A stretch of DNA of 64,000 nucleotides from an uncultured Methanosarcinales archaeon (GTDB taxonomy: Archaea > Nanobdellota > Nanobdellia > Woesearchaeales > DSVV01), in the NCBI GenBank assembly GCA_964390375.1, contig CAYMIF010000001.1, positions 45,460-109,459 on the forward strand, given 5' to 3'. How positions within the stretch are numbered: the first letter of the stretch is position 1; every line of letters starts with the position of its first letter. This document shows positions 1,160 through 61,927 of this stretch, piece after piece. The notes below the pieces were generated by a model, which did no database searches, was not told where the DNA came from, and was given only the letters and a program-made list of their open reading frames with translations. The position numbers and the translations under genes are program-made.

Positions 1160-2995
1160 ATGAGAATGGTCAACAGAAAAAAAAAATTTATGATCCTGTG
1201 CGTATTTCTTCTAGCTGTGCCTTTCTGCCTTTCTTATGACCAGGTGGTTGTCAATTCCCGTGACTGGCAGGATGTATATTCAGGGATGCTCTATTCCAAA
1301 TTAACTGGCTCCTATGGAAGCTATGTGATTGAAGAAGGTCACGGCCAGATGCTTCTGGAATACATGCCAAGAGACCAGGAAGAGGTACTTTTAATTGAAT
1401 CTGCGCAAAATCCTTATATCAGAAATTTCAGGACAAATCTTGAATCAAGGGGCTTTGATGTAGATATGATGGGGGCGAGGGATGACCTGAATCTTGAGGT
1501 GGCAAGACTTGTAAACGTCACTGGATATATCATAATAGATGAGGATTACAGCTACGATGCAGTTTCTGTTGCGCCCTATGCTTCGCTCAAGAGATTTTAT
1601 GTAATATTCTGCGATAACGAAAACCTGGATGAGGTTTTTTCTTTTCTTTCATCTCAAGGCAATCCTGATGTGATACTCTATGGTTATCTTGACCGTGAGG
1701 TTTCTGAAAGGCTCTCTGGATTCAATCCAACCGTTATCAATGAGGGTGATAAGTTCTCAAACAACCTAGAGATCGTCAAGATGTTCTTCGAAGAAAAAAG
1801 TACAGGTCAGCTCATACTGACCGACGGCACATTTCTGGAGCCTCAGTTCTTTGCAGGAAATTATCCTGTGCTTTTTATCGGAAGAAGCAATGTACTGGAT
1901 TCTACTGTGGATTTTGTCAAGGAGTCTGGCGTGAAGTACGGAATGCTTGTCGGTTATGATAATTTTAACAATGCTGTGACACTCAAGAACCGAGCTGACC
2001 TGAAGGTCATCGTGAAGTTCGCAAAAGGATATGACCAGCAGCAGTATGCTCTAGATATATATAAACTTCCTCAAGCGATATATGATGTTGCGATAGTATC
2101 CGCGAATTACAACAGGCTCACAAAGAAGCTTGAGGTCAGCTATGAGAACAAGGTGGATTTCCCAGTCCTTGTGAAATCAAGCCATAACATCCTTTTGAAT
2201 GATGATTCTGTAGGTGTTGTCGGAGATCAGTCTCCTTTCTATCTTGATTCTATGGGCCAGAAGACTGTTGCTTATGATATGGACGTAGGATCAGTAACAG
2301 ACGATGATTTCATCAGTCTTGAATCTGAACTACTTTATGGCGCTGATATACGTGAACTTGAATACAGAAGCGAGTTCAACGTCGAGGTGGCGGTTATTTC
2401 TATAGAGGACAATTCCAGGATAGAACTTGCCGGGCTGGTATACAACAAACCGAAGAAGAGATTTTTTCTAACTGTCAGGAACCCGGGAGAAGATGTTGTG
2501 TATGTCAAGCCTGAGATATCTGATATCCTAATCAATGAAAGAGAGGAGACCCTGACCGCAGAACAGGCTGCGATTGAGCCAGAAGAGAGCTACGAATTTC
2601 GGATCAAGGCAGACCTTTCTCCTGCAGATATCGAAGACAATGAAATCATCAACCTGAATATCTTCTATGGCTCCAGGCCCGATGCCCTGGTACTTTTTTT
2701 AGAGGAGAGTGCCGAGCTTGAGGTCAGCTATATCACTGACGAGTTTTTAATGTGGATATATGCCGGCGCTGGAACTGTTATCGTTGTTTTAGTCCTGTTG
2801 GCTGTTTTAATCTTACTGAGAAGAAAACCAAAGAGAAAAGGCCACTCGGTTCCTGCGCCGAGGCCAGTGCATAGACCTGTTCATCATACTGGATATCATC
2901 AGTCATCACATCATGCTGCTCCGGCGCATCATAAGGTCCAGCAGGTTCATGGGTATTCTGCACATCGATTGCCAAAGCCGCCAGGGCATAGGTGA
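1160..2995 (+). CDS. cell-surface protein with a signal peptide, a C-terminal TM anchor and a His/Pro-rich cytoplasmic tail
   Basis: 611-aa ORF. The N-terminus is MRMVNRKKKFMILCVFLLAVPFCLS (a signal-like sequence). The C-terminus has a hydrophobic helix IYAGAGTVIVVLVLLAVLILL followed by RRKPKRK and a His-rich tail. Confidence 0.5.
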   Translation: MRMVNRKKKFMILCVFLLAVPFCLSYDQVVVNSRDWQDVYSGMLYSKLTGSYGSYVIEEGHGQMLLEYMPRDQEEVLLIESAQNPYIRNFRTNLESRGFDVDMMGARDDLNLEVARLVNVTGYIIIDEDYSYDAVSVAPYASLKRFYVIFCDNENLDEVFSFLSSQGNPDVILYGYLDREVSERLSGFNPTVINEGDKFSNNLEIVKMFFEEKSTGQLILTDGTFLEPQFFAGNYPVLFIGRSNVLDSTVDFVKESGVKYGMLVGYDNFNNAVTLKNRADLKVIVKFAKGYDQQQYALDIYKLPQAIYDVAIVSANYNRLTKKLEVSYENKVDFPVLVKSSHNILLNDDSVGVVGDQSPFYLDSMGQKTVAYDMDVGSVTDDDFISLESELLYGADIRELEYRSEFNVEVAVISIEDNSRIELAGLVYNKPKKRFFLTVRNPGEDVVYVKPEISDILINEREETLTAEQAAIEPEESYEFRIKADLSPADIEDNEIINLNIFYGSRPDALVLFLEESAELEVSYITDEFLMWIYAGAGTVIVVLVLLAVLILLRRKPKRKGHSVPAPRPVHRPVHHTGYHQSSHHAAPAHHKVQQVHGYSAHRLPKPPGHR

Positions 2996-3005
2996 ACCAA
3001 ATCTT

Positions 3006-4046
3006 TCATGTTACCAGATTCTTTGGCTTGTTTTTCAGCCATGCCTCGATGTTGTCAATCATCATGTCGTTTCCTATCCTTGCTGTGACGTCTGTGTTAT
3101 ATGCAATATGAGGCGTTGCGAGAATCTTTGGGTGTGCTTGGATCTTCCTGTAGTATGGATCTGCGGTATCTCCAACATGGATGCTTCCTGTGTCCATAGC
3201 TGCGCCTGCGAGTATTCCCCGGTCCAGTGCTTCAATTATAGCATCTGTGTCGTATATCTTTCTTCCGGTCACTGTTATGAAAAAAGACCCGGTTTTCAAT
3301 GATAAGAAAAATTCGTTGTTTAGAATCTCTTTTGTTGTAGGGTTTGAACTGAGACAGTCCACAACAATATCTGCGGATTTTGCTTTTTGAATAAGATTGT
3401 CTCCTCTCCTGAAATAAGTAACATCCATCTCAAGGGCCTCGGCAATTGCCCCGACCCGCGAACCAACGTTTCCTTTTCCCAAAATAGTCATCTTTTTTCC
3501 TTTTAATCCTATTGTTCTATCTGCGCCTTTTTTTTGGGTCTAGGTGTGTCGTGTTTATATATCTTTGAAACTCACGACGGCTATTATGAAATCCTATCCT
3601 ACTTCACCGATGTTTCACATCGGTTACGCCTGGCCACGAGAATATTTATGAAATAAATATTCTCTCTCATGGCACAGACGGCTAGGATTTCATAATAGCC
3701 ACTCACGACAAAGATTGAGCATCATCCCGATGACCCATTCAGATACTGCGTGTTTGTTGCAGCCAGGAGACCTTGCGAGAAAAACATTGTTTTTTTTTGC
3801 TTTTTGTGCATCGAACCAGCTTGTTCCGACAAAAGGGACCGATATAAACTTGTCCTTGAGTTCCTGGTACTTCTGCTTTAGGCCAAATTTTCCAGAGCAA
3901 ATTATGTCGGCCTCCTGAACCCGCCTGAGCCAGGCATCATGGTCAGGAGCATAATCATCATAAAAAAAAGCTTCTCCCATAGACTTCAGTCTCTCAATCT
4001 GATCAGGCAGGAGGTCCATGTGCTGAGCTATTATTATCTTTTTCAT
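3006..4046 (-). pseudogene. D-isomer-specific 2-hydroxyacid dehydrogenase family gene, interrupted by a MITE insertion (3579-3700) and carrying an apparent 1-nt frameshift in an A8/T8 run (3528-3535)
   Basis: The N-terminal catalytic-domain fragment (ORF 3690..4097, ...FVGTSWFDAQKAKKNNVFLARSPGCNKHAVSEWVIGMMLNLCRE) runs into the element and stops (CREWLL*). The C-terminal NAD-binding fragment (3006..3491) starts MTILGKGNVGSRVG, which is the GxGxxG Rossmann motif. Manual re-joining after removing the element, one TSD copy and one A from the homopolymer gives ...LNLCREFQRYINTTHLDPKKGADRTIGLKGKKMTILGKGNVG. This matches the usual linker between the two domains. Confidence 0.55.
3579..3700 (+). mobile_element. 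122-bp MITE-like element, GGCT-terminus family, variant 1, with a 9-bp TSD
   Basis: Terminal inverted repeats GGCTATTATGAAATCCTA...TAGGATTTCATAATAGCC. Perfect direct repeats ACTCACGAC at 3570-3578 and 3701-3709. The internal core is hairpin(CCGATG..CATCGG)-CGCCTGGCC-hairpin(GAGAATATTTAT..ATAAATATTCTC)-TGGCACAGACG. The element lies inside a coding sequence. Confidence 0.65.
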
Positions 4047-4109
4047 CGTGAAATCAGGAAGGAATCTGATATATTTAAATCTTCTTTTTGAAATCAAATC
4101 AAGATTCTG

Positions 4110-7100
4110 TCATCTTATCTCTACATAGAATACTATCTCTTCAGTAAATCCCTTGTATGAATTCAGCTTTTCTGGTATGCGTATTTCGAATCCGTATGTG
4201 CCATAGCTTCCTGTCTGACCTGAGTTGTAGCTTGTGTAGAATATCAGGTCCTCCTCTTCGGCTATGTCAAACTCGTCATCAAGCGAATCGCTTGTGTCCC
4301 ACAGGATTCCTGTCTTGAAGCTGCTTGAGTTCTCAGTCGAATTTATCATCGAGACATTGTAGATCGGAAGGCCGTATAGTGTGATGTTCTGCATCTCCTT
4401 TGGAATGGTTGAATCAATGCTCCAGGTGGCATTTATCGAATCAGACCTGTTGGATATGTTCAGGACGATATCCATGTCCAGGAAATCCTGCGACGCTGTT
4501 GTTCCGTCCTTTTTCCTCCCTATTGCCTGCAGGTCGTTTACGCTGAAGACAGAATCTGCGTCTGCAGCGTATACATTGAGTATCTGGCCTTCTGTCATGT
4601 TCTTGAGGGTTGTCAATATGTATCCCAGCGCGAGCCTTCCTGTTGCGTTTCCGTAGTAATAGTTGTAGGATTCTTTCTGAATTCTGAACCATGTACTGTA
4701 AGTATTCTTATTTCCTGAGGTGTCATTTGCATATACTGTTATGTTGTAACTTCCTGATGAATTAGCAAAATCGAAAGTTGCATTGTATACATCATCAAGG
4801 TCATTGTCAGTCATATTGACTATCAAGGTGTTTTTATTCCATGTGATGTTAGCATAAACATTGTCAATCCCTGTATTATCTGTGACATTTGCTGTTATTT
4901 CGATTATGGAAAATATAATGAATTCATCTTCCTCAGGCCAAACATCTTTGATCAAGGGTATTGATGAGTCGAGAGTAAATTGCCATAACGATGAGTTTAC
5001 ATCGCTTAAATCATCACTTGTTCGAGTGAACCAGTGATAGGTATTATCTGATAGATCTGCATCATCTCTTATAGAGTCTGTTGTTCGTGATGAATTCAGT
5101 ATTCTTGTCTCATCAATGCGGCCATTGAAGTAGTTCGGACCAGCTGAACCGAGAGAATCTTGATTAACTGTTGCTCCGATACCGCCTTCGTCAGCATGCG
5201 AGCTGATTGAGGAATACGAGGCTGTTGTAGTGTTTTTCAGTAGACCATCCAAGAATATTGACATATTTCCTCCATCAAATATTGCTGTTATGAGGTGCCA
5301 TCCTGAAGTATCTGTGTAGTTGGTCGTGATCAGAGTCTTTGTTCCTCCTCCAGATGTTGCGAATTCAAGGATTGTTGAGTTCAGGCGAAGGGCGAAACCG
5401 TCAGATCTTCCTCCTTCTTCGTATATCGTCTGTATGCCAGCAAGCGCGTCGGGCTTTATCCAGATCTGGACAGTCTTGTTGTCAAATGGGCTGTTGAAGA
5501 AGCTTTCGTTCAGAAGCCAATATTGAGATACCCCGTCATAATCGAAGGCTCCTGCGAATTTTCCTCCATTCTCTATGAATGTCGGACAGTTTGTTGTGCA
5601 GGTCCTGTCGTGGTTTTCAGCTGAGGATGCGAAATTCTTAACTAATGTTGAGTTTTCGCCATGTTCTGATCTGTTATCAAAATGCCAGAGTGCTTCTGTT
5701 TCTGCAGTCATATTTAATACCGGCGCATCCCATGTATATGAAATCAATGTGTTATTAGATATATCACAGAGCCTGAAGAGAAGATCATCAGAAGATTCTG
5801 CTGCATCTGAACTGAATATATCCAGACAAAGTAGCTCGGTGTCGTTGTCCTCTACTCTTGCCTGAAGGCCGACAGAAGATGAGGCTATCCTTGAGTTGTT
5901 TTCAGGATTCACTAAAAATGCTGCTGGTGGCTGGTCTTCCTGTGTCTGTGCTGTATCATTTATCCAAAGCTCATTTAGATTGTTATATATGTCTGATGTC
6001 CTTGTACCTATCTCATATATTGTATTTGGAGCCAAGTCTGAGATGTTTGTGTAGTTTTGGCTTAGATTTGAATAGAAGCTTCCGTTGATCCATATCTCTG
6101 TGCGGTAGAAATCAGAATCAGATGGGTTTGTCCAGTTCCAGATTATCCAGGTCTTTGATGTCTTTGTTTCATCAAGATTTGTCACGCTTGCAGGAGGGGT
6201 ACGGTCTTCATAGTATGTGACATTGAAGTAGAATGCATCCCAGTATATCTCGTATTGTCCTGGTCCGCCGCTTCCAGAGTGGACCAATTCTGATTTTGCA
6301 ATAGCACTTGTAGCGTTTGATCCGAAGAAAACCCCGCATGTCCAATCTTCATCTGATGTTATGTCGACGCAGGTTATCCCAGAAGGTTCTGTTGTACCTG
6401 GGCAGGTGTTTGTGACTGCTGTATAGTTTGCTCCCTGATCAGCGTCAACTGATATATCACATGTCATTATGTCCGAAGTGTCAGACCACCATTTATAACA
6501 GAACTGAACCGATTCGACCAGTATACAATTCTCTATTGTGTTATTTGATGTGTTTGTCCTGATTCCTGCCCAGTATCCTGATTTTTCCACAGGATGGTTC
6601 TCAACTATAATGTCGTCGTAGAAAAGTGCGGGTCCTGGGTATTTCCTATCACATGCATCACCCCATGTACCTGCTGCAGTTGCAGCGTCCTCAGCTGAAC
6701 AGTTGTTGATTGTCATCTGAAGGCTTAATGGAAGCTCTGGAACGATGTCTATCCACCATGTCTCGTTGCCTGGATTGTAGTTCTCAGTACCATGGAAATA
6801 TGCTGTTATATTGTTCATTGAGGTATTGTTGAACAGGATGTTTTCCTGGTAAGGAGATGTCCCGTTGTATAGAAGCGATCCGTTCTGGTATATTGTTATG
6901 TTTCCGTCTCCTTTCAGAAGAGTTGCCTGGATTGTGACAAATGTGTTGTTTTCGGCTGTTATGTTAGACCTGTATCCATTGAGCGTCAGCTCAATTGATG
7001 AATCTGCTCTTGAAATATTCAAGGTAGCCTGAATCTCGGATGATGTGTAGTTCTGCGTCTGGGTTGAATTACAGATGTATAGGTATTCAGCAACATCCAA

Positions 7101-10100
7101 TGTCTGTACGTCCGGATTTGCGACAGGACTTGCGTTTCTGTACAGCAAAGGTGTAATCTGGGAATCTGCACCTTTGCATGATATATTTGTCTGATTCGAG
7201 TATGTAGTGTTCCATCCTGGCTGAGCTGAAAGAGTCAGATTCGGGTCTGCTCTCGCTATCGTGAAATACCATACATCTGTCATGTTAATATTACCTGCTG
7301 AATCATTTGCATATGACTTCCAGTAGAACGAGCCTGCCGGAAAGACCTGCTGGAAATTGTATACATTGAGTGTTATCTCATTCATTGTATAGTTTGTTGG
7401 AACTTTGGAGAAGTTGCTTTCGAAAAGAACATCTTCTACTTTCACATCATCTGTCCAAGTTATATTGAATGAACTGTTCATCGAAGGCTTGAATATTGAG
7501 ACTATGTCGGTTTTATTGGCTGACCATTTTGGTGGATAATCCGGGATTTCCTGTGTTGTTGCATTGACCCACCAGGTCTCTGAATCTGAAGTGTAATTCT
7601 GGTTTCCATTGTATAGTGCAGTTATGTTGTAAAACCCCTCTGTATTGAAAAAGGTCATATTTTCTGAGGGGAGTGTGCTATTGAAGATAAGAGTATTGTT
7701 GTTGTAGACCTGCAATATTCCGGACCCAGATATGAAATCAGCTGAAATATTGAGTGATGTTCCAAGTTGAATCGTGCGATTGTTTCTTGATCCATTCAGA
7801 TACAGTGCGACAACTCCTGCTGCTTTTGTTACATTCAACAATGTCCAGGACGAATTATATGTAAAATTCTGAGTCTGGGATATATTGCATGTGTAGTTGT
7901 AGCTGCCTGCACCGAGTGTTTGGATGTCAGAAGTACCTGAAATCAGTGTTGAGTTCCGATAAAGGGCAGGAGTTATCTGAGTCGTATTGAGTGAACAGGT
8001 AATATTTGTCTGTGTGCCATATGTAGCCGTATCTGTCGGATCTGCTGATATTGTCAGGCCGGGATCTGCCCGCAAGATCGTGAAATACCATTTATCTGAG
8101 AGGTTCCATTGTCCTATTGAGTCGTTGGCATGAGAGGTCCAGTAGAATGAGCCGGCTGGGAGTATCGAGGTGTAGTTGAAGATATTTGCTGACTGGTTTG
8201 TCATAGTATAATTTTGCTTTGTTCCTGAGAAATTGCTTTCAAATAATGACGTGTTCAGGCCATAATAATCTTCCCAGGTGATGTTGAATGTGCTATCGGT
8301 CGTCTCGGAATAGTAGATGGGCGTGAATGATGAATTTCCTGACCAATATGGAGGATAGTCTGGAGGCGGGCTGTAGGAGACATTGAAGTATAATACATCC
8401 CAAATCACGTCATAATTTCCCGGGCCAGCAGAGCCACTATGCTGTATCTCTGATTTTGCGATCGCTCCTGTCGGAGTTTCTCCAAAGAAATTACCGCATT
8501 GCCAGTTTTCCGAGGCAGTCACGTTAACACATGTCATGACTGCTGGCTCAGCAGTTCCAGGGCATGCAGCAGATACTGCAGTGTAGCTGTTTCCATAGTC
8601 TGAATCTATGCTTATATCGCAATTCTGTGTTCTTGTGGTAGCTGCCCACCATTTGTAGCATATCGTGACACTGTCAATGCTATCGCAGTCTGTCACTGAT
8701 GAATTTGTCGAGTTTATTCTTACTCCTGCCCAGGTTGTTCCTGATTTTGATATCTTGTGTATCTCCCTTGCTGCGTCTTCATAATAAAGCGTTTCCCCTG
8801 GATAAGCATTGTCACATGCGACATTCCATGAACCTGAAGCAGATGCCAGTTCCTGGGCTACGCATTTTTGGATTCTCATCTCTCCAAATGCAGGATCGTC
8901 TGGTGTAAGAAGGAATGTGTAGTTTTGGCCGGGTTTTATGTCCATTATCTTGACCCAGCTGCCAAAGCATTTTTGAGCAGTAAAATTCCATTCTTTGCAT
9001 TTATAGAGCTCTGTTCCCTTTGCTGTGGCTGTGACTGTCGCATTCGTGAAATTCAGCATTGCCGGATCAATCGCATATGATTGGATATAATCCTCTATCT
9101 CTACATCCTCTATACCAAGGTTGATAGCTCCTTTATACTCTATGCTTCTGAAATCTATCTGCTTGACAGCAGATGTCAGATTTCTTAATCTAATTGAATC
9201 TATCTTATTTTGGTCTTCTGGATTAGTCTGTCTCTTGATAAAGCTCTCTTTCTTTTCCAGAGGCAACTTGAAGTACGCTGGGATGCTTTTTGCAAGACCA
9301 TCATATTCCAATGATACCTGGTGTTTTAGTATGAATGTCCCTTCAGTTATGTTTTCAGAGTGTATTTTGAAATCTGATGTGATTTGTTCTTTTGGCCTTA
9401 TCTTATCAGGATCTGAATATTTTCTTTCATCCCTGTATAATACGCTGCTCATGTTGTCATATGTCATTATAGAATCCTCATAGTAGAGTATCAATGTTAT
9501 ATTGCTTATATTAAGTTCCTTTGGTATGCTGCTCTTCAGGATGTTGTCCTGCTTTGTGAGTTCGGTCCTATAGTAGAAATTATCCTCACTGAATAATACT
9601 ATCTCTTGAGTCCTGTTCAAAAGCTTTCTTGATAAGTCTGGTGTCACTTCTATCAGCTTCTCCAGGTCTTTTTCGACTATCGTAATCTTAAATGTGCTTT
9701 TAGGTTCTGTATCATCATCTGTGTCTTGGCTTTCCTGTCTTTCATTATCTTCTGAATCTATTTTGATTTCGGGATCATACTTCTCTTGGGTATCAATGAC
9801 TTGTTCTGGTCCCTGCTGCACCTCAGCCACTATGTTGTCCTTCTGAATCTTTGGTTTTTCCTGTTCTTTGTTTCTCCTGTCTATTATCTTGTCTATCCAG
9901 TCGACTGTGTAATATCTTCCTCCGTGATTCAAGATGAATTCGATGCTGCTAATGTTCGCCCTGATCGGCATTTCTGCATAAATCTTATATCCTTCCTTTC
10001 TAGGGTTCAGAAGGTATATTACCTGTCCATCGCTGGCTGTTCCCGAGAATGTGAGATCTTTGTATGAGAAATGACCATCCAAATATATGTTAATCGATGT

Positions 10101-10238
10101 CTTATAATCATCTATCTCAAGCACAACCAGCTCTTTTGGTTCTGATTGTTCAGATAATGAGAAAGATGATATGAGGATGATTACTGTAGCTAACAGTATG
10201 CTTAATAATACTATTTTCAATCCTCTTTTCTTATCCAT
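4110..10238 (-). CDS. giant (2042 aa) surface glycoprotein with a signal peptide, two tandem ~500-aa repeats and a LamG/concanavalin-like domain
   Basis: One uninterrupted ORF. The N-terminus is MDKKRGLKIVLLSILLATVIILISS (a signal-like sequence). NxS/T sequons are extremely dense. There is an internal duplication (DYPPYWSGNSSF...YWTSHANDS... and DYPPKWSANKTD...YWKSYANDS...). A LamG-like segment reads FDYDGVSQYWLL...GWHLITAIFDGG...FNGRIDETRILN. Confidence 0.7.
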   Translation of the reverse strand: MDKKRGLKIVLLSILLATVIILISSFSLSEQSEPKELVVLEIDDYKTSINIYLDGHFSYKDLTFSGTASDGQVIYLLNPRKEGYKIYAEMPIRANISSIEFILNHGGRYYTVDWIDKIIDRRNKEQEKPKIQKDNIVAEVQQGPEQVIDTQEKYDPEIKIDSEDNERQESQDTDDDTEPKSTFKITIVEKDLEKLIEVTPDLSRKLLNRTQEIVLFSEDNFYYRTELTKQDNILKSSIPKELNISNITLILYYEDSIMTYDNMSSVLYRDERKYSDPDKIRPKEQITSDFKIHSENITEGTFILKHQVSLEYDGLAKSIPAYFKLPLEKKESFIKRQTNPEDQNKIDSIRLRNLTSAVKQIDFRSIEYKGAINLGIEDVEIEDYIQSYAIDPAMLNFTNATVTATAKGTELYKCKEWNFTAQKCFGSWVKIMDIKPGQNYTFLLTPDDPAFGEMRIQKCVAQELASASGSWNVACDNAYPGETLYYEDAAREIHKISKSGTTWAGVRINSTNSSVTDCDSIDSVTICYKWWAATTRTQNCDISIDSDYGNSYTAVSAACPGTAEPAVMTCVNVTASENWQCGNFFGETPTGAIAKSEIQHSGSAGPGNYDVIWDVLYFNVSYSPPPDYPPYWSGNSSFTPIYYSETTDSTFNITWEDYYGLNTSLFESNFSGTKQNYTMTNQSANIFNYTSILPAGSFYWTSHANDSIGQWNLSDKWYFTILRADPGLTISADPTDTATYGTQTNITCSLNTTQITPALYRNSTLISGTSDIQTLGAGSYNYTCNISQTQNFTYNSSWTLLNVTKAAGVVALYLNGSRNNRTIQLGTSLNISADFISGSGILQVYNNNTLIFNSTLPSENMTFFNTEGFYNITALYNGNQNYTSDSETWWVNATTQEIPDYPPKWSANKTDIVSIFKPSMNSSFNITWTDDVKVEDVLFESNFSKVPTNYTMNEITLNVYNFQQVFPAGSFYWKSYANDSAGNINMTDVWYFTIARADPNLTLSAQPGWNTTYSNQTNISCKGADSQITPLLYRNASPVANPDVQTLDVAEYLYICNSTQTQNYTSSEIQATLNISRADSSIELTLNGYRSNITAENNTFVTIQATLLKGDGNITIYQNGSLLYNGTSPYQENILFNNTSMNNITAYFHGTENYNPGNETWWIDIVPELPLSLQMTINNCSAEDAATAAGTWGDACDRKYPGPALFYDDIIVENHPVEKSGYWAGIRTNTSNNTIENCILVESVQFCYKWWSDTSDIMTCDISVDADQGANYTAVTNTCPGTTEPSGITCVDITSDEDWTCGVFFGSNATSAIAKSELVHSGSGGPGQYEIYWDAFYFNVTYYEDRTPPASVTNLDETKTSKTWIIWNWTNPSDSDFYRTEIWINGSFYSNLSQNYTNISDLAPNTIYEIGTRTSDIYNNLNELWINDTAQTQEDQPPAAFLVNPENNSRIASSSVGLQARVEDNDTELLCLDIFSSDAAESSDDLLFRLCDISNNTLISYTWDAPVLNMTAETEALWHFDNRSEHGENSTLVKNFASSAENHDRTCTTNCPTFIENGGKFAGAFDYDGVSQYWLLNESFFNSPFDNKTVQIWIKPDALAGIQTIYEEGGRSDGFALRLNSTILEFATSGGGTKTLITTNYTDTSGWHLITAIFDGGNMSIFLDGLLKNTTTASYSSISSHADEGGIGATVNQDSLGSAGPNYFNGRIDETRILNSSRTTDSIRDDADLSDNTYHWFTRTSDDLSDVNSSLWQFTLDSSIPLIKDVWPEEDEFIIFSIIEITANVTDNTGIDNVYANITWNKNTLIVNMTDNDLDDVYNATFDFANSSGSYNITVYANDTSGNKNTYSTWFRIQKESYNYYYGNATGRLALGYILTTLKNMTEGQILNVYAADADSVFSVNDLQAIGRKKDGTTASQDFLDMDIVLNISNRSDSINATWSIDSTIPKEMQNITLYGLPIYNVSMINSTENSSSFKTGILWDTSDSLDDEFDIAEEEDLIFYTSYNSGQTGSYGTYGFEIRIPEKLNSYKGFTEEIVFYVEIR

Positions 10239-10446
10239 TTTTCAAATACGGAAGATTAAGCTTCCATAGGGCCCTCTTTGATGTTTTTATCTGCTTTATT
10301 ATTCCCCTGCTGCTTAGCAATCTGATATGTTTCTTGACAGTTATCCACGATATCCCTGCAGCTTTCGCTATCTCATTTATGCTCAAGGGCCTGACATTCT
10401 GCCCCAGAATTATTATTATCTTTTCGTCATACAATGAGAATGCCAT
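10231..10446 (-). CDS. small winged-helix DNA-binding protein (putative transcriptional regulator)
   Basis: 71 aa. The motif LSINEIAKAAGISWITVKKHIRLLSSRGII is HTH-like. It lies directly upstream of, and overlaps by 8 nt, the giant surface-protein gene on the same strand. Confidence 0.4.
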   Translation of the reverse strand: MAFSLYDEKIIIILGQNVRPLSINEIAKAAGISWITVKKHIRLLSSRGIIKQIKTSKRALWKLNLPYLKNG

Positions 10447-10454
10447 CTGCTGTT

Positions 10455-10715
10455 CTATCCTTTCTTGAATTCAAGGAGCAGCCTGGGCCTGTCCCTGAGG
10501 ATGTTCTCTGGCTGCACCAGGGTGAACACAACCCTGTCCTTTGCGGGGTTGAGTTCCATCTCTTTTGCGAATTTTGCCGGGATCCGCAGGTTGTACTGAC
10601 GGCCATCGAAGAATATCTTGGCTTCCTTGACACGGACCCTCTCTTTTTGCATAAGAAGCTTCTCTATCTCTGAAAAATCTTTTTTTGACATGTTTTTTTT
10701 TGTTTTTTTATCCAT
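10455..10715 (-). CDS. AbrB/SpoVT/MazE-like swapped-hairpin domain protein
   Basis: 86 aa. KIFFDGRQYNLRIPAKFAKEMELNPAKDRVVFTL resembles the AbrB-type beta-hairpin DNA-binding fold. It is the first gene of the apparent wHTH-giant protein operon. Confidence 0.4.
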   Translation of the reverse strand: MDKKTKKNMSKKDFSEIEKLLMQKERVRVKEAKIFFDGRQYNLRIPAKFAKEMELNPAKDRVVFTLVQPENILRDRPRLLLEFKKG

Positions 10716-10745
10716 TTTCGTTTATAATATTTTAATTTTTTTATA

Positions 10746-10801
10746 AAAAATAGGACGAATTAGTATATAAATGCTTTGTTTTTTACCAAAAATAGGACGA
10801 A
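10746..10801. promoter_or_regulatory. promoter region with two direct repeats of AAAAATAGGACGAA and TATA-like boxes, upstream of the AbrB-wHTH-giant-protein operon
   Basis: Exact 14-bp direct repeats at 10746-10759 and 10788-10801. TATATAA/TTTATAA motifs lie between them. The region is 30-90 bp upstream of the 10715 start. Confidence 0.35.
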
Positions 10802-10807
10802 AAATTG

Positions 10808-11749
10808 TTAACTTTTGTCTTCTTCAGAAGAATATGTGATATTTTTTTCTGAGCCTTTGTCTTTCTTCTTACTCGACAGCCAGGAAAGCGTCGTGATCAG
10901 AATAAGTCCAGCAGCTATTGATGCAAGAATAGAATAGCTTATCCTGACTGTCGCTATCATGTCCTCGCGGGTCAGTTCATCTGCTATTGCGGATGGTTCC
11001 TGGATCTCGGGGCTTGAGTCTTTTGGAATGTAGTGTTCTTGCGGATAATAATACCTGTCTATCTTAAAAAATGCTTTTTTTGCATCAATCTGTTCCAGGG
11101 TCATGATTATCTCGAATTCCTCATCATCATCGATATCAAGGTTCTTGGATTCTCCTATGCTGAATATCATCTTCTGCTGGTTCGGAATCATCAGCACCTC
11201 TGCCTGATTTTCAGACATGTTCAATATAATGAAGCTTATCTTTGAGAGATCAATCCAGTCGTGGCTGAGGACAATCTCGAATGAACTGCCTTCCTGTGCA
11301 CTGATTCGTTCTTTAGGTATTTTTGCGGATCCTTTTGATTTGCTCTCCTCCTTTTTTGCAGGGATGTCGTTGTATCTATCATCAGTAGGGTTTTTATCCA
11401 GATATTCCTGCTTTTCATTTTCTTCGAAAGGCAAAATAAGATCATAGTCTATTACTCCGCTGTCAAGATCTAATTCCTGTGTATGGTTCTCTACATACAT
11501 TATGACAGAATCGCTGTTCTGCCTGCATGAGAATGTGTAGAAATAATAATTCTTCCAAGGCCATTCTCTGCCTGTCCATGTCTGGTATGTGAAATTATAG
11601 TATGGGTAATGGATATAAAGCGTTGTGTTGTCCTTTACAGGTGCGCTGTCATTGTAGAATATCCTGCCGCGAAGGGTGCAGAAGTCAGCTGATGCATAAG
11701 AAAGCAGGGCTAAGAGCATGATTGTGAAAAGCAATGTGATCTTTTTCAT
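10808..11749 (-). CDS. hypothetical surface protein with a signal peptide and a C-terminal TM anchor
   Basis: ORF 10808..11797. The likely start is MKKITLLFTIMLLALLSYASA. The C-terminal segment IAAGLILITTLSWLSSKKKDKG is hydrophobic and then basic. The start could instead be at 11797. Confidence 0.45.
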   Translation of the reverse strand: MKKITLLFTIMLLALLSYASADFCTLRGRIFYNDSAPVKDNTTLYIHYPYYNFTYQTWTGREWPWKNYYFYTFSCRQNSDSVIMYVENHTQELDLDSGVIDYDLILPFEENEKQEYLDKNPTDDRYNDIPAKKEESKSKGSAKIPKERISAQEGSSFEIVLSHDWIDLSKISFIILNMSENQAEVLMIPNQQKMIFSIGESKNLDIDDDEEFEIIMTLEQIDAKKAFFKIDRYYYPQEHYIPKDSSPEIQEPSAIADELTREDMIATVRISYSILASIAAGLILITTLSWLSSKKKDKGSEKNITYSSEEDKS

Positions 11750-11768
11750 TTTTCTATTAATTTTCATT

Positions 11769-13289
11769 TCAAGGACCTCTGTCATATTCCCATTCATAAT
11801 CTTTATCTGTTATTCCGAAGATGAGACCTTCCCCTGGCTGCAGACAGTCAAAATCGCCGGTCCAACCGAATGGTTCAGCAAATTTCATGACGCCGTCAAA
11901 TCCCGGATCCGGCACCTTGGCAGGATTGTAGATCATCATAGTATCTCCTGTCGTTGAGTTGGGGGAGAGGAGGCTGCTAAGATTGCATTTTTTGAATGGC
12001 GAATTCCAGCCGATGCTGTTTAGCTCGACCTCTCCTGGAATCTGGGTAGAATGATAGATAGGGATGGATATGTTTCCTGTCGGGACAGTTCCTACGAATG
12101 TCAGGGTATAGTTCTGGGAGACTATTCCTAGCCAGTATGCCTTGGACACATTAATCTCCGATATCGCGCCAGACCAATAAGTCGGGCCTGCGAACCTTAT
12201 GCTTCCGTCAAATCCAGGGTCAGGAAGCTTGAATGGGTTGTATGTCATTATGGTGTCACCTGGCTTAGACCATCTGAACACGTTGTTCAGGCTCTTGTTC
12301 TTAGGTATTACCGGAAATGAAATTATGTTGAACTCAATCTCTCCTGGAATCTGGGTAGAATTGTATATCTTCATGTCAACCTTTCCTATTGTATCGTTGC
12401 CTATGAATTCAATGTTGTTCATTGTTCCTGAAACCTGATAGAATCTAGTCTTTGCTTTTGAAGCATTGTAATCTATCCACATCTGTCCTGTGAGATTGGA
12501 GATGTTGCTATTGTTATAGTAAAATCCAGCAGAAAGATTGTCTGTTATGTATATCGAATAGTTGTCAGCACCAATGTCCTGCCATGTGATTATTATACTC
12601 TTGTTGTCGTCAGCAAGCGAAGCTATTGGATGGAGCTTGTCAATCTCCAGGCATGTCGGTGTCTGAAAAGTATAGTTGAGCGAGCCTGCAACAGGGACCG
12701 GCAGCATCATCTGATAATCTGCCTGCCTGCTGTTGAATGAGGTCGTGTTTTTTTGGACCAGGGTTACGAAAACGATGTCTGTGCCCTTCTTGAGTATACC
12801 AAGACTATAATTCACTCCAGCTCCGTATGTGAATGTTGAATATAATGATATGTTAGACCCGTCTATCAGGAAAGTGTGGTTATGTATGAAAATGCTTGTT
12901 CCGGAATATGGTGAATATGCTGGAACACCAATAAGATCGTCTATGTCTGAAGGCGATGCAGGAACCAAGTCCGAGAGATTCGTTATATTCGATGAGGTCG
13001 CGAAGAGCTCCTCATAGCCGCATGTACTGATTCCAAGGTCTATATGTGTTATGTTCTGAGAAGAATAGTTGAGCAGAGCATAGTCTTTTGGATAGCTGGA
13101 AGAGATGTTTCCATAGAATCCCTTCCAGTAATATTCCTCCTGAGACTGCACGTCCACATGGCTTACGTTTCCTCCTGTTGCCGGAACCATGCCTGTCGGA
13201 GTCTTGAGAAAGCTGAGAAAGATAAGCAACGGAAATAATAATATAAGGACGGCTGTCAGGATAAATAAGATCCTCTCATCTTTTTCCAT
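11769..13289 (-). CDS. hypothetical secreted protein with an internal ~85-aa duplication
   Basis: 506 aa with an N-terminal TM or signal sequence. The repeat units are ...IYNSTQIPGEIEFN...YNPFKLPDPGFDGSIRFAGP... and ...IYHSTQIPGEVELN...YNPAKVPDPGFDGVMKFAEP.... Confidence 0.5.
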   Translation of the reverse strand: MEKDERILFILTAVLILLFPLLIFLSFLKTPTGMVPATGGNVSHVDVQSQEEYYWKGFYGNISSSYPKDYALLNYSSQNITHIDLGISTCGYEELFATSSNITNLSDLVPASPSDIDDLIGVPAYSPYSGTSIFIHNHTFLIDGSNISLYSTFTYGAGVNYSLGILKKGTDIVFVTLVQKNTTSFNSRQADYQMMLPVPVAGSLNYTFQTPTCLEIDKLHPIASLADDNKSIIITWQDIGADNYSIYITDNLSAGFYYNNSNISNLTGQMWIDYNASKAKTRFYQVSGTMNNIEFIGNDTIGKVDMKIYNSTQIPGEIEFNIISFPVIPKNKSLNNVFRWSKPGDTIMTYNPFKLPDPGFDGSIRFAGPTYWSGAISEINVSKAYWLGIVSQNYTLTFVGTVPTGNISIPIYHSTQIPGEVELNSIGWNSPFKKCNLSSLLSPNSTTGDTMMIYNPAKVPDPGFDGVMKFAEPFGWTGDFDCLQPGEGLIFGITDKDYEWEYDRGP

Positions 13290-31205: not shown

Positions 31206-31327
31206 GGCTATTATGAAATCCTATACTACTACGTTTTTACTGCGTAAAAACTTCGCCTGGCCCCGAGAATATTTATTTCATAAATATTCTCTCTCGTGGC
31301 ACAGACGCATAGGATTTCATAATAGCC
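31206..31327 (+). mobile_element. 122-bp MITE-like element, variant 1, directly abutting the variant-2 copy
   Basis: Termini GGCTATTATGAAATCCTATAC...ATAGGATTTCATAATAGCC. Flanked by ATAAAAAAG at 31197-31205 and 31328-31336. It is nearly identical to the reverse-oriented copy at 50627-50748. Confidence 0.65.
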
Positions 31328-32232: not shown

Positions 32233-32336
32233 GCCCCCGTAGCATAGTAGCTATTGCGGCAGACTTGTATCATTTTGAATCATAGATTCGTTTTTTAGAA
32301 ATCTGCAGGTCGTGGGTGCAAATCCCACCGGGGGCT
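32233..32336 (+). tRNA. intron-containing tRNA, anticodon read as TGT (Thr), with a ~31-nt intron after position 37
   Basis: Acceptor stem GCCCCCG/CGGGGGC. Anticodon stem GCAGA/TCTGC. Loop CTTGTA followed by intervening sequence 32270-32300. T arm GTGGG-TGCAAAT-CCCAC. Discriminator T. No encoded CCA. The isotype call depends on where the intron is placed. Confidence 0.7.
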
Positions 32337-32349: not shown

Positions 32350-35300
32350 CTATGCCTTCTTTAAAGATTCATATACCTTGTGCTTATCCTTTGCATTGCT
32401 GAGATATAAAGCATCCTTTAAATGGGTCTTTGACCAGCCCTTCTTCAGAAGATTTTCTGCCAATTTCCTGTGATCCTTGGTCTTGGTGTTGAAAAGGAAG
32501 ATTATTGGCTTTATGTTCTCCAGCTCCTGGGTATATCTTTTCACTGCGTCCTTTGTGAAGTAATGATGCTTGAGTATCCTTTCAGAGCCGTGAGAATGCA
32601 GGATGTTGGTGTATGCATAGTATTTGCTGAACTCCGAGTATATCTGGCTTGCAGCCTGGGGGCTGAGCCCTGCTTTTGCTATCTCTTTTCCAAGCATCTT
32701 CGGCGAACAGTGGACCCTGAGCAGGCTGAAGGCAACATCGTCCGGGTCCTTTTGGACCATGAGCTCCTGGATCATCTCAGAAAGAACCTTTGAAAGCCCC
32801 TTGCTGTAATATTCCTTGTATCCTTCATCTATCAATATGGTGTATGATATGAGGTTGATGTCATATGAATGATGTATCAGATAGTTTATCAGATGATGAG
32901 GGTCTGCCTTCCTGTCCATGCCTTTGTCAAGCTCTTTTTTTATCCTCTTCTGCTGGTCCTTGTATCTTTTTTGTCTTAATTTTTCCGGCGTGAACCTGGA
33001 ATGATGGAGGAAGTTTGCTATCTCAGACTTGTCAAAAAGCCAGATGTGATACTTGTGGAACCCAAACTCGTTGTTGGCATGAAGCTCGCTTATGAATGCA
33101 TAGAGCATGTATATGTGCAGCCAGATGTAGACTGCTATCTTCATCAGATCCAGGATGTAGTCAAAAAGCAGGTAGTTGAGAGTGAGATCGGGTATGACCT
33201 TGCTGTAAAGTATGATTGAATGATAGATGAAATTCTTCAGGAAGAACAGTGTGTAGACGAAGACCAGCAGTATCGCTATCGTGACAGTCTTTATCTCGAT
33301 GATCTTTTTATGCTTCCTTGTCACAAGATATGCCCATATCCCGACAGTCGCTGAAATCAATGAGAGTGCAAGGATGTTGAGATTGAAGCTAATACTGCTG
33401 AAGTACATGCTGAAATAGAACAGGATTGCTATTGCAGGGATGACATGAGTTATGATATCCATCAGGTGGTTGTGCTTTCTTATCATGTGGGCCACTATGA
33501 ATACAAGCAGGATGCCTGCAATTATCATCCCCGGGATGTCAGGCCTTATCGCTTCTGGCAGTGTCTTTATTACAATCTCGTTTCCGACCACAAGATTGCT
33601 GTTGATCTTCTTTATCTGAAATATCGGCGTGAGTATGAAGAAGACCAGGGATACTGCAAATGATATCAGTGTCCATCTTGAGAACGAAAGCCTCTTTGGC
33701 TCTACCGTGTCCTGGGCATTGCGGTAGAATATGTGTGAGTAGATCTTGAACGGTATGTAGAACAGGATGAGGATCGCGATCATATTCATTACATAAATGA
33801 GGTATGTTGCCAGAGGGTCTGCGGTGCTCTGCATAATGAGGTCGTAGACAGACGGAGACTGGGCAGTAAAGCCCTGTGCGTATATCTCTGGCTGAGGCAT
33901 GAATGGCAGGAGGCTTGAGAGTATGAAGATTATGAATCCAAGGCCGATTATGTAGAATATCCTGATGGAGATGGATACCCAATATGTTCCCTCGTCCTGG
34001 AGCATGACGATTATGTCGCGGACAAAATCCTCGATAGCGTTGAATGCTTCAGTAAGCGAACTGAGGGTGAGTTTTCTGTATCTTATGACATGGTAGATCA
34101 TGAATATCAGGGCGACTGAAATGAGGATTATGGAATCAGTCGCTATGGAGAATCCTTCGATTATCATCTGGAAGAAGATGAAGAACGTGATTATGATGAT
34201 TATGATGGTCTTTATGATCCTGAATGGCGAATAATTGCCTTTGAGAAGGTTGGATGCGAACGAACTCTTGTCCTTGTTCCTTATTATGAGCCTGTATGAC
34301 AATATAGAGATTATGACAAACAATGAGATCAGGGCGATGCCTGTGTAATCCTGGGTCATGTCCATCAGATACAGGATGGTCTTTACAGCCCTTCCGAAGA
34401 ATCCGTACTTTCCGAAGAGGCCTATGAATATCTCCTCAAGCGCCGGCAGCCACCAAAGAGAGCAGAATATGAGGATCAGGGCAGTCGTTATCCTGCTCCT
34501 CTTTCCGAAGAGACGCTCTGAGATGTTGGTCTTTAGTATGAGGATGAATGCCAGCAGAAGCGACATCATCTTCTTGACAAAGTCCAGGTCTCCGAGCATG
34601 CCCATGATGTCGAGGATGCTCAAGGCCAGGAGAAAGATGAAATAGAGCAGGATGAATTCCCTTATGCTCCAGACCAAGGGCTTTAATATAGGGTGCTTAT
34701 TTGCGTGGTCTTTTAGCTTTCCTATGTTTGTTGTGTTGACCAGGACTATTATAACTATGAATACAAGGAAGAAATATGCAAGGGTGAGGTAGTCCAGTAG
34801 CTTGGGAGGCTCGCCGAATCTTGTGACAATGCTTGCAACCAGGGCAGTGACTGTCACCTCTTCGTCACAGTTTATGTCCTCGACCTGCTTTATTTTAAGC
34901 TTCAGCTCCATCTCATCGTCAATCTCCTCGAAATGCACGAATATCTCTGGGTCAGCTTTTGTTATCGTGAAATTGAAGTTCGCGTCAATGACCTGCTCTG
35001 CATATTCATGGGTTAGCATCTCGACTAAGCATTTGGGGATGTGGATTGGCAAACCTACTCCTACAGCTTTCTTGTTGTCGTCCCTGGGCTTTATCTTGAC
35101 TGTGGCCTCAGCAGAGCCGTTGTCATAGATGACTGTTGTGGTGTTGGTCTGGATAGCCTGCTTTGCGAGCTCCTTTGCCTTGTATATCTCGAAATCATCA
35201 AGATAATCATCTATCCTGCTCTGCTCCTTTATCATGAGCTCATAACTGATCCTTCCTATCTCTTCCTCAGTCATGGACTTATTTATCGTGTAGTTGGTGT

Positions 35301-38300
35301 GGATCTCCTCGTAAGGCCCGAGGTCTCCGAGGGCAAATTCTATCTTTGGATCCCGCTGGATTATGGTGAAATTGACATCTGAGGAGATGTGGTCTGTTGT
35401 GTTGATTATGTCCTTTGGTATCGTTATCCTCAGCCTGGCCTGAGCTTTTTTCAGCGGTGTCGGGTTCCTGATAGTATCTATTATCTCTGTGTGGTTCTCG
35501 TGAACCCTGAATCTTGTGTGCTTCTTTATCTGGTTTGAGAGCTCGTAGGTGATGGAGTAGTTCTGTATTATGAATGCAGGCGGTTCTTTGATCTTCCGGC
35601 CAGAAGAATCGCTGTCATCATCCTGCTCTTCTGGGGTGGTCTCTTCTGCTGGCTCTTCTGTCTGGGGTATGATGTCTGGCGAGCCTCCTCCGAATGAACT
35701 GCTGCCGGAGCTGACAGATGAGCCTTCGTCTTCATCTTCATCTTCACCTACACATGTGCAGGTGTTTGTGCCTGAATGAGCCCATGTGCCTCTGTTTCCG
35801 CAGACTCCGCCTGTTATTTTTCCGCCATCTTCGTCATCACAGTCGAAGATGTCTATGTTCGTGCAGATCCCGGCGTAGGCTATACCTATCTGGCCGTCGT
35901 CGTCATTGTCCCAGTCCTCGTCTGCCAGCTGGTCGCAGTCATTGTCGTATGAGTCGCAGATCTCTGCTGTACTGTAGCTTACCTGCGCTGACCAGGCGCT
36001 CTTTTGGTGGCTTGAGTCGATGGACTGGACCTGGACATAGGCGCATCGCGGAGGTATGTCGAGAGATATCTCCTGCAAAAGCTGCATGTTTCCGAAGTAG
36101 CCCTGAGGCGGGTTGGTCGAAAGAGGGTTAAGGCTAGAGAGGATGTTTTGGTTGGTCGGGCTGGAGCCTATCTTTAGGTTATAGTAAAGGACAGGGGATT
36201 CTGCATCTGAGCCTGCGGTCCAGTTGATTTTCATGCGGCTGTTGTTGTATGAGATGTTTACTGCTGTCGGCGGAGCGGGGAGCGTGTTGTTCTTTAGTTC
36301 ATTTGCATCAGAGCGATAGATGCGGGTGTTGGCAGACTGGGATTCGTTGAAGCCGGTGTAGAAGATGTCGAGGTTGTTGTCGTTGTTGTAGTCGGCGAAT
36401 GCGAGGGAGCCTGCCCATGATCCGTCGAAGGTGTTGAATGTGTCTTCGATGAAGGTTGTGCCGTTGCTGTAATAAAGTTTTGTTATTGAATCTGTCCATG
36501 TGCCTCTTGTCGTACCTGCTAATAATAGGTCAAGAAGGCCGTCGTTATTGTAATCTCCCAGTGTGAGGCTTCCTTTCCAGACTGCAGTCAGGTTCTGGGA
36601 CCACGCCGGCGAATATGTGAGGTTATTTGCGTTGTTTTGGTATACCTTTGCTATCTTATCTGTACAGTTAGCTGGAGAGCTGGTTCCTGAACTGCATCCA
36701 ATGAGAACAATGTCCATGTATCCGTTGTTATCTATGTCACCTGATGTAATGTGGCCGAATTTCACTCCTGTCAGGTTTTGGGTGTTTGTGAATGATGCTG
36801 CTTGATTGTTCATGTATACTTTGGTCGTGAATTCGTCATCTGCATTGCCATACCTGCCAGAGACAATGATATCTGTGAAATTGTCATTATCAAGATTTAC
36901 TGCGTTTACTGAACATTCTGTGACACCCATGAAATTTATCACTGATTTTGAGAAGGAATCTCCGTTGTTTGTGTATAATGATGTCGAATAGGCGGCACTA
37001 TCGCTGGTTCCACAAGTGATGAGGTCTATGAGCCCGTCATTGTTGTAGTCCAGCCATGCGTGGGAGGAATAATATACAGGATTTATTCCGTGGGAAGAGT
37101 CATCATAGGTCCAGCCGGATTGGTATCTGATGATGTAGAGTTTTTTTTCAATTGGATCAATCTGTCTTTGACCTGAGGTGATTATGTCGTATGTTTCGTC
37201 ATTGAAAGGATCTGCCAAAGAGATTCCACCGTACATTAGGTCAGGGAGATTTATCTCATCATGAGGTGTGAAAAATGCATTGGTGTTTGAATAGACATAT
37301 CCTTTGGTTGTTGTTTTATCCAATACTTCTGGACCTGATATGAAAATATCATGATAATGATTTGAATCCAGGTCAGCTAACAATAATGAGCTTCCGAATG
37401 ATGTACCATACACTCCCTGCTCATCCAGGTCGTATGCTGTGGAATTCGGCTTGACTGTTATCGAAAATGTGTGGTTCAGTGTCTCGTATCCAGACATGTT
37501 GCATCTGATCGTGACCTGCTTGTCTCCAAGGGATGTGAAATTGTAATCAATAGTATGGACTGCTCCTGTGTAGGACATGTTGTGCCATGTGCTATCCAGG
37601 CTTATGGTGCAGTTTTCTGATATCGGAAGGTGGGATGTCGTGTTTGAGTAGTTTGCAGTAAAGGTGACAGTTTGGTTTATCATGAGGCGGGATGGTGAAT
37701 AATCTGTCTCTAGAAGGCTGTTTGATGCAGCAGAATAATTGCTGAATCCAGAGACATTGAATGTGAGATTTCCATTAGTGTAATCAATCACTGTGCAGTC
37801 TGAGCAGACCTGGTCGTTTCTGAGGATTGCCGGAATCGCAGAGAAATTCAGGTTGAATATAGTTATGTTGGCTCTTCTGTTCAGGCCCTGGGCAGCGGAA
37901 ACATCTATGTCTATATTATTCTGTGAGATGTTCACTATCGAGTTTAAGTCTAGGTTGGAGACGTCGATATTTTCATTAAACATTATCATGCCGAATCCTG
38001 GCAAGCCGATCGATGCGGCTGAGACATTGGATACATCAGAGACTTCAGAGAAGTTTGTTGTGAGGGAGTTGTAATAGTTTGAGAATATCGGTTCAGAAGA
38101 CCTGTTGAGAGTGATTGTGAGGGCTGTGTTGGATGAGTGCGTGTAATCCATGTTGTATTGGTTGTATCCGGATCTTTGGAAGTAGATGGTGTAGTTTTGT
38201 ATTGAGGATGTTCCGTTGTTCCTGTCGCTTGTGAGGACAAGCCTTGCCTTGCCTGGACTGTCTGTTGCGGTGTCGTAATGCATTCGGTTGTCTGTATCGT

Positions 38301-47923: not shown

Positions 47924-48046
47924 GGCTATTATGAAATCCTAGCCTACTTCACCGATGTTTCACATCGGTTCCGCCTGACCCCGAGAATATTTACTAATGT
48001 AAATATTCTCTCTCATGGCACAGACGGCTAGAATTTCGCAATAGCC
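47924..48046 (+). mobile_element. 123-bp MITE-like element, variant 1
   Basis: Termini GGCTATTATGAAATCCTAGCC...GCTAGAATTTCGCAATAGCC. It is flanked by A-rich direct repeats AAAAAAAAG (47915-47923) and A9G (48047-48056). Confidence 0.6.
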
Positions 48047-61925: not shown

Positions 61926-61927
61926 CT

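Follow-up and report, generated by a model that had tools for sequence, protein, structure and literature searches.

What governs the expression of a giant surface-protein gene in an archaeon, and is that control peculiar to the gene? The question is raised by a locus in a 64-kb window (the whole stretch of DNA analysed here: 64,000 nt of contig CAYMIF010000001.1, assembly GCA_964390375.1, from an uncultured Methanosarcinales archaeon), in which an open reading frame (ORF) for a 2042-aa protein is preceded, on the same strand, by two small genes coding for proteins of 86 and 71 aa, called here p86 and p71. The initial annotation saw there a single operon under dedicated, possibly phase- or condition-dependent, control, with a major envelope protein as its product and repeats in its promoter as operators for the small regulators. 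As judged from the sequences, p86 and p71 are a conserved, co-inherited two-gene regulator cassette, best described as a portable two-protein self-regulating promoter module found mostly in DPANN archaea. As to its mode of action, the reading that we favour, at a probability of about 0.6, is cooperative negative autoregulation, which would also cap the expression of the presumably co-transcribed and translationally coupled giant gene.

The cassette promoter and its boxes

The three ORFs lie on the minus strand, p86 at 10455..10715 (cassette gene 1), p71 at 10231..10446 (cassette gene 2) and the giant gene at 4110..10238. An 8-nt spacer, read from the sequence, separates p86 from p71, and the ATG of the giant ORF is inside the last codons of p71, with an overlap of 8 nt (ATGGATAA); coordinates and overlap are as initially annotated. 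A scan of the minus strand from 10715 to 4110 revealed no terminator-like site (the sigma-70 promoter scan, being based on a bacterial model, is uninformative for an archaeon). The close relative L002 has the same gene order, two small genes and then one for a signal-peptide protein, and a secreted, sequon-rich product whose gene overlaps p71 by 4-8 nt is encoded in L002, L003 and L005 as well as in the window. With such a gap, such an overlap and such a conserved order, the three genes appear to be transcribed as a single unit, in agreement with the operon first proposed.

The intergenic spacer upstream of p86 is 92 bp long (10716-10807). It contains twice, and exactly, the sequence AAAAATAGGACGAA (plus strand), at 10746-10759 and 10788-10801, i.e. 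42 bp apart, so that two exact TTCGTCCTATTTTT copies bracket one TTTATATA box. The repeat stretches to 23 nt with an identity of 21/23, and is partly made of T/A runs. No further match to AAAAATAGGACGAA was found in the window, even when two mismatches were allowed (chance expectation for such a 14-mer: 0.5 per window). The pair of repeats with a TATA box between the copies is thus confirmed, and unique to this place in the window. On the coding strand the order is: TAA (stop codon of a 329-aa ORF), 5 nt, TTCGTCCTA-TTTTTGGTAAAAAA, CAAAGCA-TTTATATA, CTAA, TTCGTCCTA-TTTTTTATAAAAAA, 22 nt and ATG.

Three boxes can be distinguished in the spacer. Box 1, an exact repeat with the TTCGTCCTA core at 10793..10801 (minus strand; extended 23-nt copy at 10779-10801), begins 5-6 nt past the stop codon of the 329-aa ORF and is located ~22-30 nt upstream of the TATA box. 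The latter (TTTATATA, 10764-10771) and the TFB recognition element (BRE)-like AACAAAGCA (10772-10780) were read from the sequence and together cover 10764..10780 on the minus strand; from the usual archaeal distance between TATA box and start, transcription is predicted to begin near 10740 (± 3). Box 2, the other exact repeat of the TTCGTCCTA core (10751..10759, minus strand; extended copy at 10737-10759), lies between the TATA box and the predicted start site. Box 3 (TTCGTTTAT, 10717..10725, plus strand) sits just upstream of the p86 start codon; it is inverted and degenerate (5/9 to the consensus), and because only its TTCGT half-site remains it is the weak part of the window promoter. Within p71 (10423-10431) there is also an inverted box with one mismatch, which was discarded as no more than chance would give.

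The same architecture is found at distant homologs. The comparison involved 47 loci, taken from GTDB genomes (metagenome-assembled genomes of Aenigmatarchaeota and Micrarchaeota), from metagenomes and from two contigs carrying the window protein and one close relative; the promoter statistics were calculated on the 145-nt regions of 31 non-redundant cassette loci. In most relatives box 1 (TTCGTCCTA) is at about -88 from the start codon, followed by an (A)GATTTATAAA TATA block at about -60 in the family alignment, which is the position of the window TATA box, and by box 2, in the form (CG/AA/AC/AG)TCCTA, at about -45. The spacing between boxes 1 and 2 is of 42-43 bp in 19 of the 31 loci, with the TATA box between them. 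These two co-vary with an inverted TAGGAC(G/T) box, as a rule located 7-14 nt ahead of the ATG. The GTCCTA hexamer is present in 20 of the 31 promoters (0.2 expected) and its inverted form TAGGAC in 11 (0.42 expected). The density of the longer CGTCCTA is at least 58-fold higher in the cassette promoters than over the 206 kb that make up the rest of the loci, where most of the 'outside' copies correspond to a further box at about -150. In many DPANN cassettes this extra CGTCCTA is associated with a second TATA-like sequence, TATTTAAACCTTTCGTTTTTTAATA, at about -118, which makes a tandem box-TATA unit (L013, L020, L023, L033, L035-L039, L041 and L047 are among these loci); the window copy is without it.

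The boxes vary together. Core variants are common to the boxes of one locus: GTAC/GTAT in L003 and L028, GTTC in L008 and L011, TAGTCCTA in L012 and L044; the variant core TAGTCC is also among those shared within a locus. Out of 20000 permutations for each pair of boxes, the observed match was reached 0 times for boxes 1 and 2, 23 times for boxes 1 and 3, and 0 times for boxes 2 and 3. Between the window and L002, promoter identity is 76%; it is unbroken over box 1 (100% conserved), the BRE/TATA and box 2, and the block AAAAACAAAGCATTTATA is identical in both, as against 39-56% identity at the third positions of codons and an unrelated sequence (30%) beyond box 1. Recurrence of boxes, spacing and TATA box at distant homologs, a roughly 100-fold enrichment and co-variation within loci make it strongly supported that the GTCCTA boxes are operators of the cassette, the role first suggested for the window repeats.

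The p86/p71 pair and its cargo

Over the 47 loci, a p71-like winged helix-turn-helix (wHTH) gene directly follows the p86 homolog in 42 of 48 cases, often overlapping it. One contig of 4.5 kb, L011, bears two cassettes and in L046 (173-808) a single 211-aa ORF fuses a p86 domain (residues 49-111) to a p71 wHTH (residues 137-184). This conserved adjacency and the L046 fusion suggest that p86 and p71 probably act as a complex. The L002 proteins are 71% (p86) and 66% (p71) identical to those of the window, and identity falls to 30-40% for the distant relatives. No paper describing the pair was found, within an incomplete coverage of the literature. The cassette was not found in the IMG/VR viral contigs, by protein scan or by box-pair scan: the three box-pair matches were unrelated repeats without cassette genes, and an origin from a virus or provirus was not retained.

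The window p86 has no match in Pfam or NCBIfam at E<=1, nor in PHROG or PADLOC. Word-indexed searches of 5.8 billion proteins gave two matches for p86 and two for p71, in each case the window protein and one relative, so that both proteins are rare outside the loci described; the p86 family surfaced by exhaustive HMMER search alone, which yielded 58 representatives of 74-122 aa sharing the motif KIxFDG(K/R)QYSxRIPKKFA. Weak matches to PF04014 (MazE/SpoVT-AbrB) occur in 23 of 59 family members (best E 2e-4), and the best PDB match of the family profile is C56 of pSSVi (E 0.19). The predicted fold is an N-terminal helix followed by a beta-beta-alpha-beta-beta half-barrel of the AbrB/MazE kind; the only structural neighbours of the model are AbrB-fold DNA binders, namely C56 and C68 from the pSSV plasmid-viruses, which match best, MazE and VapB. 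The AbrB/SpoVT-like label given to the 86-aa gene thus stands as far as the predicted fold and the weak PF04014 signal of its relatives are concerned, but not by any Pfam match of the protein itself. Codons 1-12 of p86 (10680-10713, minus strand) contain homopolymer runs of A7, A9 and A7, which could be a slippage-prone tract or simply reflect a Lys-rich N-terminus; a second in-frame ATG is present at codon 9, and the L002 homolog starts at the equivalent position.

For p71 the assignment is direct, and the winged helix first reported is borne out: residues 6-51 match HTH_24 (PF13412) with 35.3 bits, above the Pfam cut-off of 21.9 (E 8.8e-9). In the PDB, the p71 family profile is nearest to wHTH domains of the Lrp/IclR type (LrpA, IclR); Stf76, a small wHTH protein of pSSVx, is absent among the best 60 of the 93 PDB sequences matching this profile at E<=1. 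At the two loci with GTTC boxes the recognition helix of p71 carries ISY(V/I)T, not ISW(V/I)T, a co-variation which, with two loci, is only a lead toward p71 as the reader of the boxes. Long p71 homologs possess an in-frame C-terminal 'K(Y)KLNFDLIYGK' segment. In L012, L013, L016, L020, L022 and L044 this segment comes after the stop codon, in the +1 or +2 frame, and in L013 an apparent TAATG stop/start overlap was read by eye; the out-of-frame segment could reflect a split gene, a frameshift or recoding.

What follows the cassette is highly variable. Besides the secreted products mentioned above, DNA methyltransferase or restriction-modification (R-M) genes are found in L004, L008/9, L014, L028-32 and L040, which amount to five distinct relatives (N6_N4, C5 or type II methyltransferases, PD-(D/E)XK and HNH genes). 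Other cargoes include a Schlafen-AlbA_2/HATPase/wHTH protein (L012) and an NYN protein (L044); an integrase gene is beside the cassette in L039. In several DPANN loci, the 70-110 nt that seem to separate p71 from the cargo in fact code, in another frame, for the p71 C-terminal 'KLNFDLIYGK', which leaves no gap between regulator coding sequence and the start of the cargo. A 1606-aa LamG/DUF2341 protein is encoded ~2 kb downstream of the cassette in L037; it was considered as a relative of the giant protein and dropped, there being no significant similarity.

None of the six giant-protein homologs examined is associated with the cassette, and only one of them, on the DPANN contig L050, has small DNA-binding genes in front. 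There, two giant genes (2783 and 2657 aa) each have their start overlapped by a small DNA-binding gene (2759-3001 and 12988-13191); of the small proteins, an 80-aa one is AbrB-like by eye, with no match to the p86 hidden Markov model (HMM), and a 67-aa one is a p71-like wHTH (E 8e-8 to the p71 HMM). With R-M, Schlafen-AlbA_2, NYN and unrelated secreted genes behind the cassette elsewhere, and giant homologs without it, a control 'dedicated' to an envelope protein is not upheld.

Mode of control and competing explanations

In the proposed scheme, the spacer 10716-10807 would be the promoter-operator of the three-gene unit formed by p86, p71 and the giant glycoprotein gene, and p86 and p71, as a putative complex, would recognise the TTCGTCCTA boxes; we infer that these cassette proteins, and not a host factor, are the box binders, and that one of them reads the core. 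Two direct boxes flank the BRE/TATA, the degenerate inverted one being at the start codon, and since 42 bp is four helical turns boxes 1 and 2 would be on the same helical face. Direct repeats would fit monomeric wHTH reading heads, which an AbrB-type obligate dimer could bridge. Once occupied, box 2 would hinder the recruitment of RNA polymerase: an operator between TATA box and start site is the classic position for an archaeal repressor that blocks this recruitment. Because box 2 is found precisely there relative to the predicted start, autorepression is the most likely sign of regulation, and it would determine, too, how strongly the giant gene, which is translationally coupled, is expressed.

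Several points weigh against negative autoregulation acting on the whole unit. A box upstream of the BRE, as box 1 is, is equally typical of archaeal activators; the giant gene may have an internal promoter of its own; and the alignment anchors used for the relatives depend on ORF-start calls that are uncertain in about 9 of the 31 loci. The window copy, in addition, has no good box 3, no upstream TATA and no -150 box, features present in DPANN copies, and its regulation may therefore differ from theirs.

If the same boxes were bound with net activation as the outcome, the complex at box 1 would recruit TBP/TFB, and the resulting positive feedback could make the unit bistable, ON or OFF, with a phase-like expression of the giant gene. 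The distance of ~22-30 nt between box 1 and the TATA box is appropriate for an archaeal activator, the tandem box-TATA units of the DPANN copies could support graded or switch-like control, and the earlier idea of a condition-dependent control would be accommodated. We nevertheless hold activation to be unlikely: box 2 and the inverted start-codon box are at positions expected to block transcription, and small autoregulated regulators, be they archaeal or R-M controllers, typically repress at high dose. Stf76 (PMC4027180) is in line with the latter point. Classical phase-variation features were not detected either, be it an invertible segment or nearly identical DNA repeats within the giant gene, and nothing points to the phase-dependent control first suggested. 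Still less probable, in our view, is that the cassette stands on its own as part of a mobile element, for example with a maintenance/copy-control or addiction-like function, and that the giant gene is nearby by chance and driven by its own promoter. The variability of the cargo, with its R-M genes and the L039 integrase, the pair of cassettes on the small L011 contig, and the nature of the closest structures (C56 and C68 are from Sulfolobus plasmid-viruses, MazE and VapB are antitoxins) go in that direction. However, neither p71 nor the neighbouring ORFs gave a match to a toxin domain, the conserved partner of p86 being a wHTH protein and not a MazF- or PIN-type toxin; the two scans of IMG/VR viral contigs found no cassette and p86 has no PHROG or PADLOC match; in the window, L002, L003, L005 and several DPANN loci the cargo begins flush with, or inside, the last part of the p71 coding sequence; and in codon usage neither the cassette nor the giant gene stands out from the remainder of the window.

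At the bottom of the scale, and hardly credible to us, is the view that the repeats are not sites of the cassette at all, having arisen by chance or by slippage duplication in AT-rich promoter DNA, or being sites for unrelated host factors. The region is indeed AT-rich, T/A runs make up part of the 23-nt repeat, and half a match to the 14-mer with two mismatches is expected per window. Against that stand a core which contains GC, is not an AT run and is conserved across phyla, the fixed spacing, the enrichment and the within-locus co-variation, together with the fact that the boxes travel with the cassette genes whatever the host lineage. Besides, a host-wide regulon motif is disfavoured because the 64-kb window has no other exact box.

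The giant protein, its surroundings and related systems

The 2042-aa protein is a sequon-rich mosaic, secreted or N-terminally anchored: its single hydrophobic segment spans residues 4-30 and none is present at the C-terminus. We counted 107 NxS/T sequons, well short of the 'hundreds' first announced and yet about three times what shuffling its sequence gives (33.7 ± 4.7, maximum 47). By hydrophobic segment and sequon enrichment it has the traits of an archaeal surface protein with predicted N-glycosylation. The LamG-like domain of the initial annotation is present at residues 1571-1723 (5070..5528, minus strand) as a LamG/concanavalin-A-like domain (PF13385, E 6.5e-16, 59.3 bits for a gathering cut-off of 27.6). 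The 'two ~500-aa tandem repeats' resolve differently: internal BLAST gives duplicated modules in the order A-B-B'-A', all on the minus strand, namely A1 (residues 444-622, Cys-rich; 8373..8909; 42-60% identical to A2), B1 (residues ~632-902; 7533..8345; 35-55% identical to B2), B2 (residues ~905-1170, in tandem with B1; 6729..7526) and A2 (residues 1165-1342; 6213..6746). The cysteines of A1 are conserved in the alignment with DPANN homologs, and B1 contains a weak Big_3_5 Ig-like match (residues 820-887). At the DNA level the best match between module copies is of 72% over 54 nt; the copies are thus old, which makes a change of copy number by recombination unlikely. The AlphaFold2 model of residues 330-640 (pLDDT 59) was too poor for a fold search.

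The homologs are giant mosaics too, for the most part from Woesearchaeota, Pacearchaeota and Nanoarchaeota, with 30-50% identity in the shared modules; residues ~350-450 are common to 39 of 40 of them and the first 300 residues are found in almost none. There is no S-layer family among the Pfam or NCBIfam matches of the giant protein and its homologs are accessory proteins; the label 'major envelope protein' finds no support. Giant LamG/Ig-rich surface proteins have been discussed for nanohaloarchaea (PMC10266531). The window protein is like the DPANN ones by its LamG and Ig-like modules and its N-terminal signal or anchor, and unlike them by an N-terminus of 300 residues unique among the matches and by its Methanosarcinales-like host genome.

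On the same strand, upstream of the cassette promoter (10808-13289), are two orphan ORFs of 329 and 506 aa which overlap by 29 nt, have 7 and 26 sequons, respectively, and an N-terminal hydrophobic segment each, and are without Pfam or PHROG match; with the giant gene they may form a surface-protein cluster. Codon usage and GC content at third codon positions are unremarkable for the cassette and the giant gene, and a recent horizontal transfer of either is unsupported by composition. Directly downstream of the giant gene, a 2-hydroxyacid dehydrogenase gene (3006-4097, minus strand) is split into two ORFs. It is interrupted by a miniature inverted-repeat transposable element (MITE)-like copy (3579-3700), with a 9-bp duplication, GTCGTGAGT, at 3701-3709 and 3570-3578; past the insert, reading on in frame apparently requires a shift at an A8 run, and the gene is probably a pseudogene. 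The MITE-like family has five copies in the window, the others being at 31206-31327, 47924-48046, 50627-50748 and 59630-59908. Four are ~122 nt long and one 279 nt, and all have perfect 18-nt terminal inverted repeats, GGCTATTATGAAATCCTA (ten matches to these repeats, 0.07 expected). A second giant ORF (32350-40623, minus strand; 2757 aa) comes after a 303-aa ORF of the same orientation (40709-41620) and resembles neither the first giant protein nor the cassette. Directly downstream of it is a 104-nt tRNA match (32233-32336, plus strand; Rfam, 54 bits) that ARAGORN missed, probably an intron-containing archaeal tRNA.

The window also encodes RadA, GyrA, a PAS/GAF/DUF835 sensor and, at 61140-63999 (minus strand), an Rnf operon (RnfB, E 4e-62; 196 bits with the methanogen-type rnfB model). 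The Rnf, gyrase, RadA and PAS/GAF/DUF835 genes point therefore to a free-living Methanosarcinales-like archaeon, not to a DPANN cell. The relatives with a name, by contrast, belong to DPANN lineages, for the cassette as well as for the giant protein.

Three kinds of known regulators are comparable with the cassette. The 76-aa wHTH protein Stf76 of pSSVx binds two sites located on the same face of the helix in its own promoter, one of them at the BRE, and is thought to autoregulate (PMC4027180). Together with the AbrB-like C68, also of pSSVx, and C56 of pSSVi, it belongs with p86 and p71 among the very small archaeal DNA binders of the same two fold classes. The two-site logic of Stf76 is the one proposed for the cassette; the resemblance is functional only, with no detectable sequence homology between C56, C68 or Stf76 and p86 or p71. 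Differences are seen in p86, distinguished from C56 and C68 by an additional helix at the N-terminus and by a motif of its own, FDG(K/R)QY.RIPKKFA, in the operator (TTAA-N7-TTAA for Stf76, TTCGTCCTA for the cassette) and in the cassette genes, which are obligately adjacent, sometimes fused, and carried by DPANN and Methanosarcinales-like chromosomes or metagenome-assembled genomes, not by a crenarchaeal plasmid-virus. With AbrB, MazE and VapB (PF04014), proteins which characteristically bind their own promoter, p86 shares a (V/L)RIP...A motif entering the helix and, as far as predicted, its topology; unlike them, the window p86 is below any Pfam threshold and has no adjacent toxin gene.

The C proteins of R-M systems are small and autoregulated, act on repeated operator boxes in their own promoter, are upstream of and co-transcribed with R-M genes, and move with this cargo; they are single Xre-type HTH proteins which bind palindromic C-boxes as dimers. 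In five distinct cassette relatives, likewise, the genes that come next downstream are those of DNA methyltransferases or R-M systems. The cassette differs in that it comprises two proteins, AbrB-like for p86 and HTH_24/Lrp-like for p71, neither being of the Xre type, in its direct repeats and one inverted box around an archaeal TATA box and, in the window, in its cargo, a surface protein instead of an R-M system. We tentatively propose, at somewhat less than even odds, that it is an undescribed archaeal 'controller cassette' with GTCCTA operators, which travels with mobile R-M or giant adhesin-like cargo and times or limits its expression.

Taken alone, the window locus is an ordinary-looking autoregulated operon, and its interest comes from the family behind the cassette. 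Small autoregulators are an already-known kind; what is new is the family-wide operator with its natural specificity variants, the link to archaeal R-M genes and the distribution from DPANN to Methanosarcinales. To our knowledge, how transcription is controlled in DPANN archaea, and how it is controlled for archaeal R-M systems and giant surface proteins, is essentially uncharted, and a defined protein pair, a 9-bp operator with variants and a fixed promoter geometry make the proposal directly testable. If true, the cassette would be an archaeal two-protein counterpart of bacterial C-protein control; if confirmed, it would provide a compact archaeal regulatory part and a marker of accessory or mobile cargo. 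In that case, its occurrence, along with giant-protein modules of DPANN type, in the genome of a Methanosarcinales-like archaeon would testify to an exchange of genes between the DPANN and a lineage that might host them.

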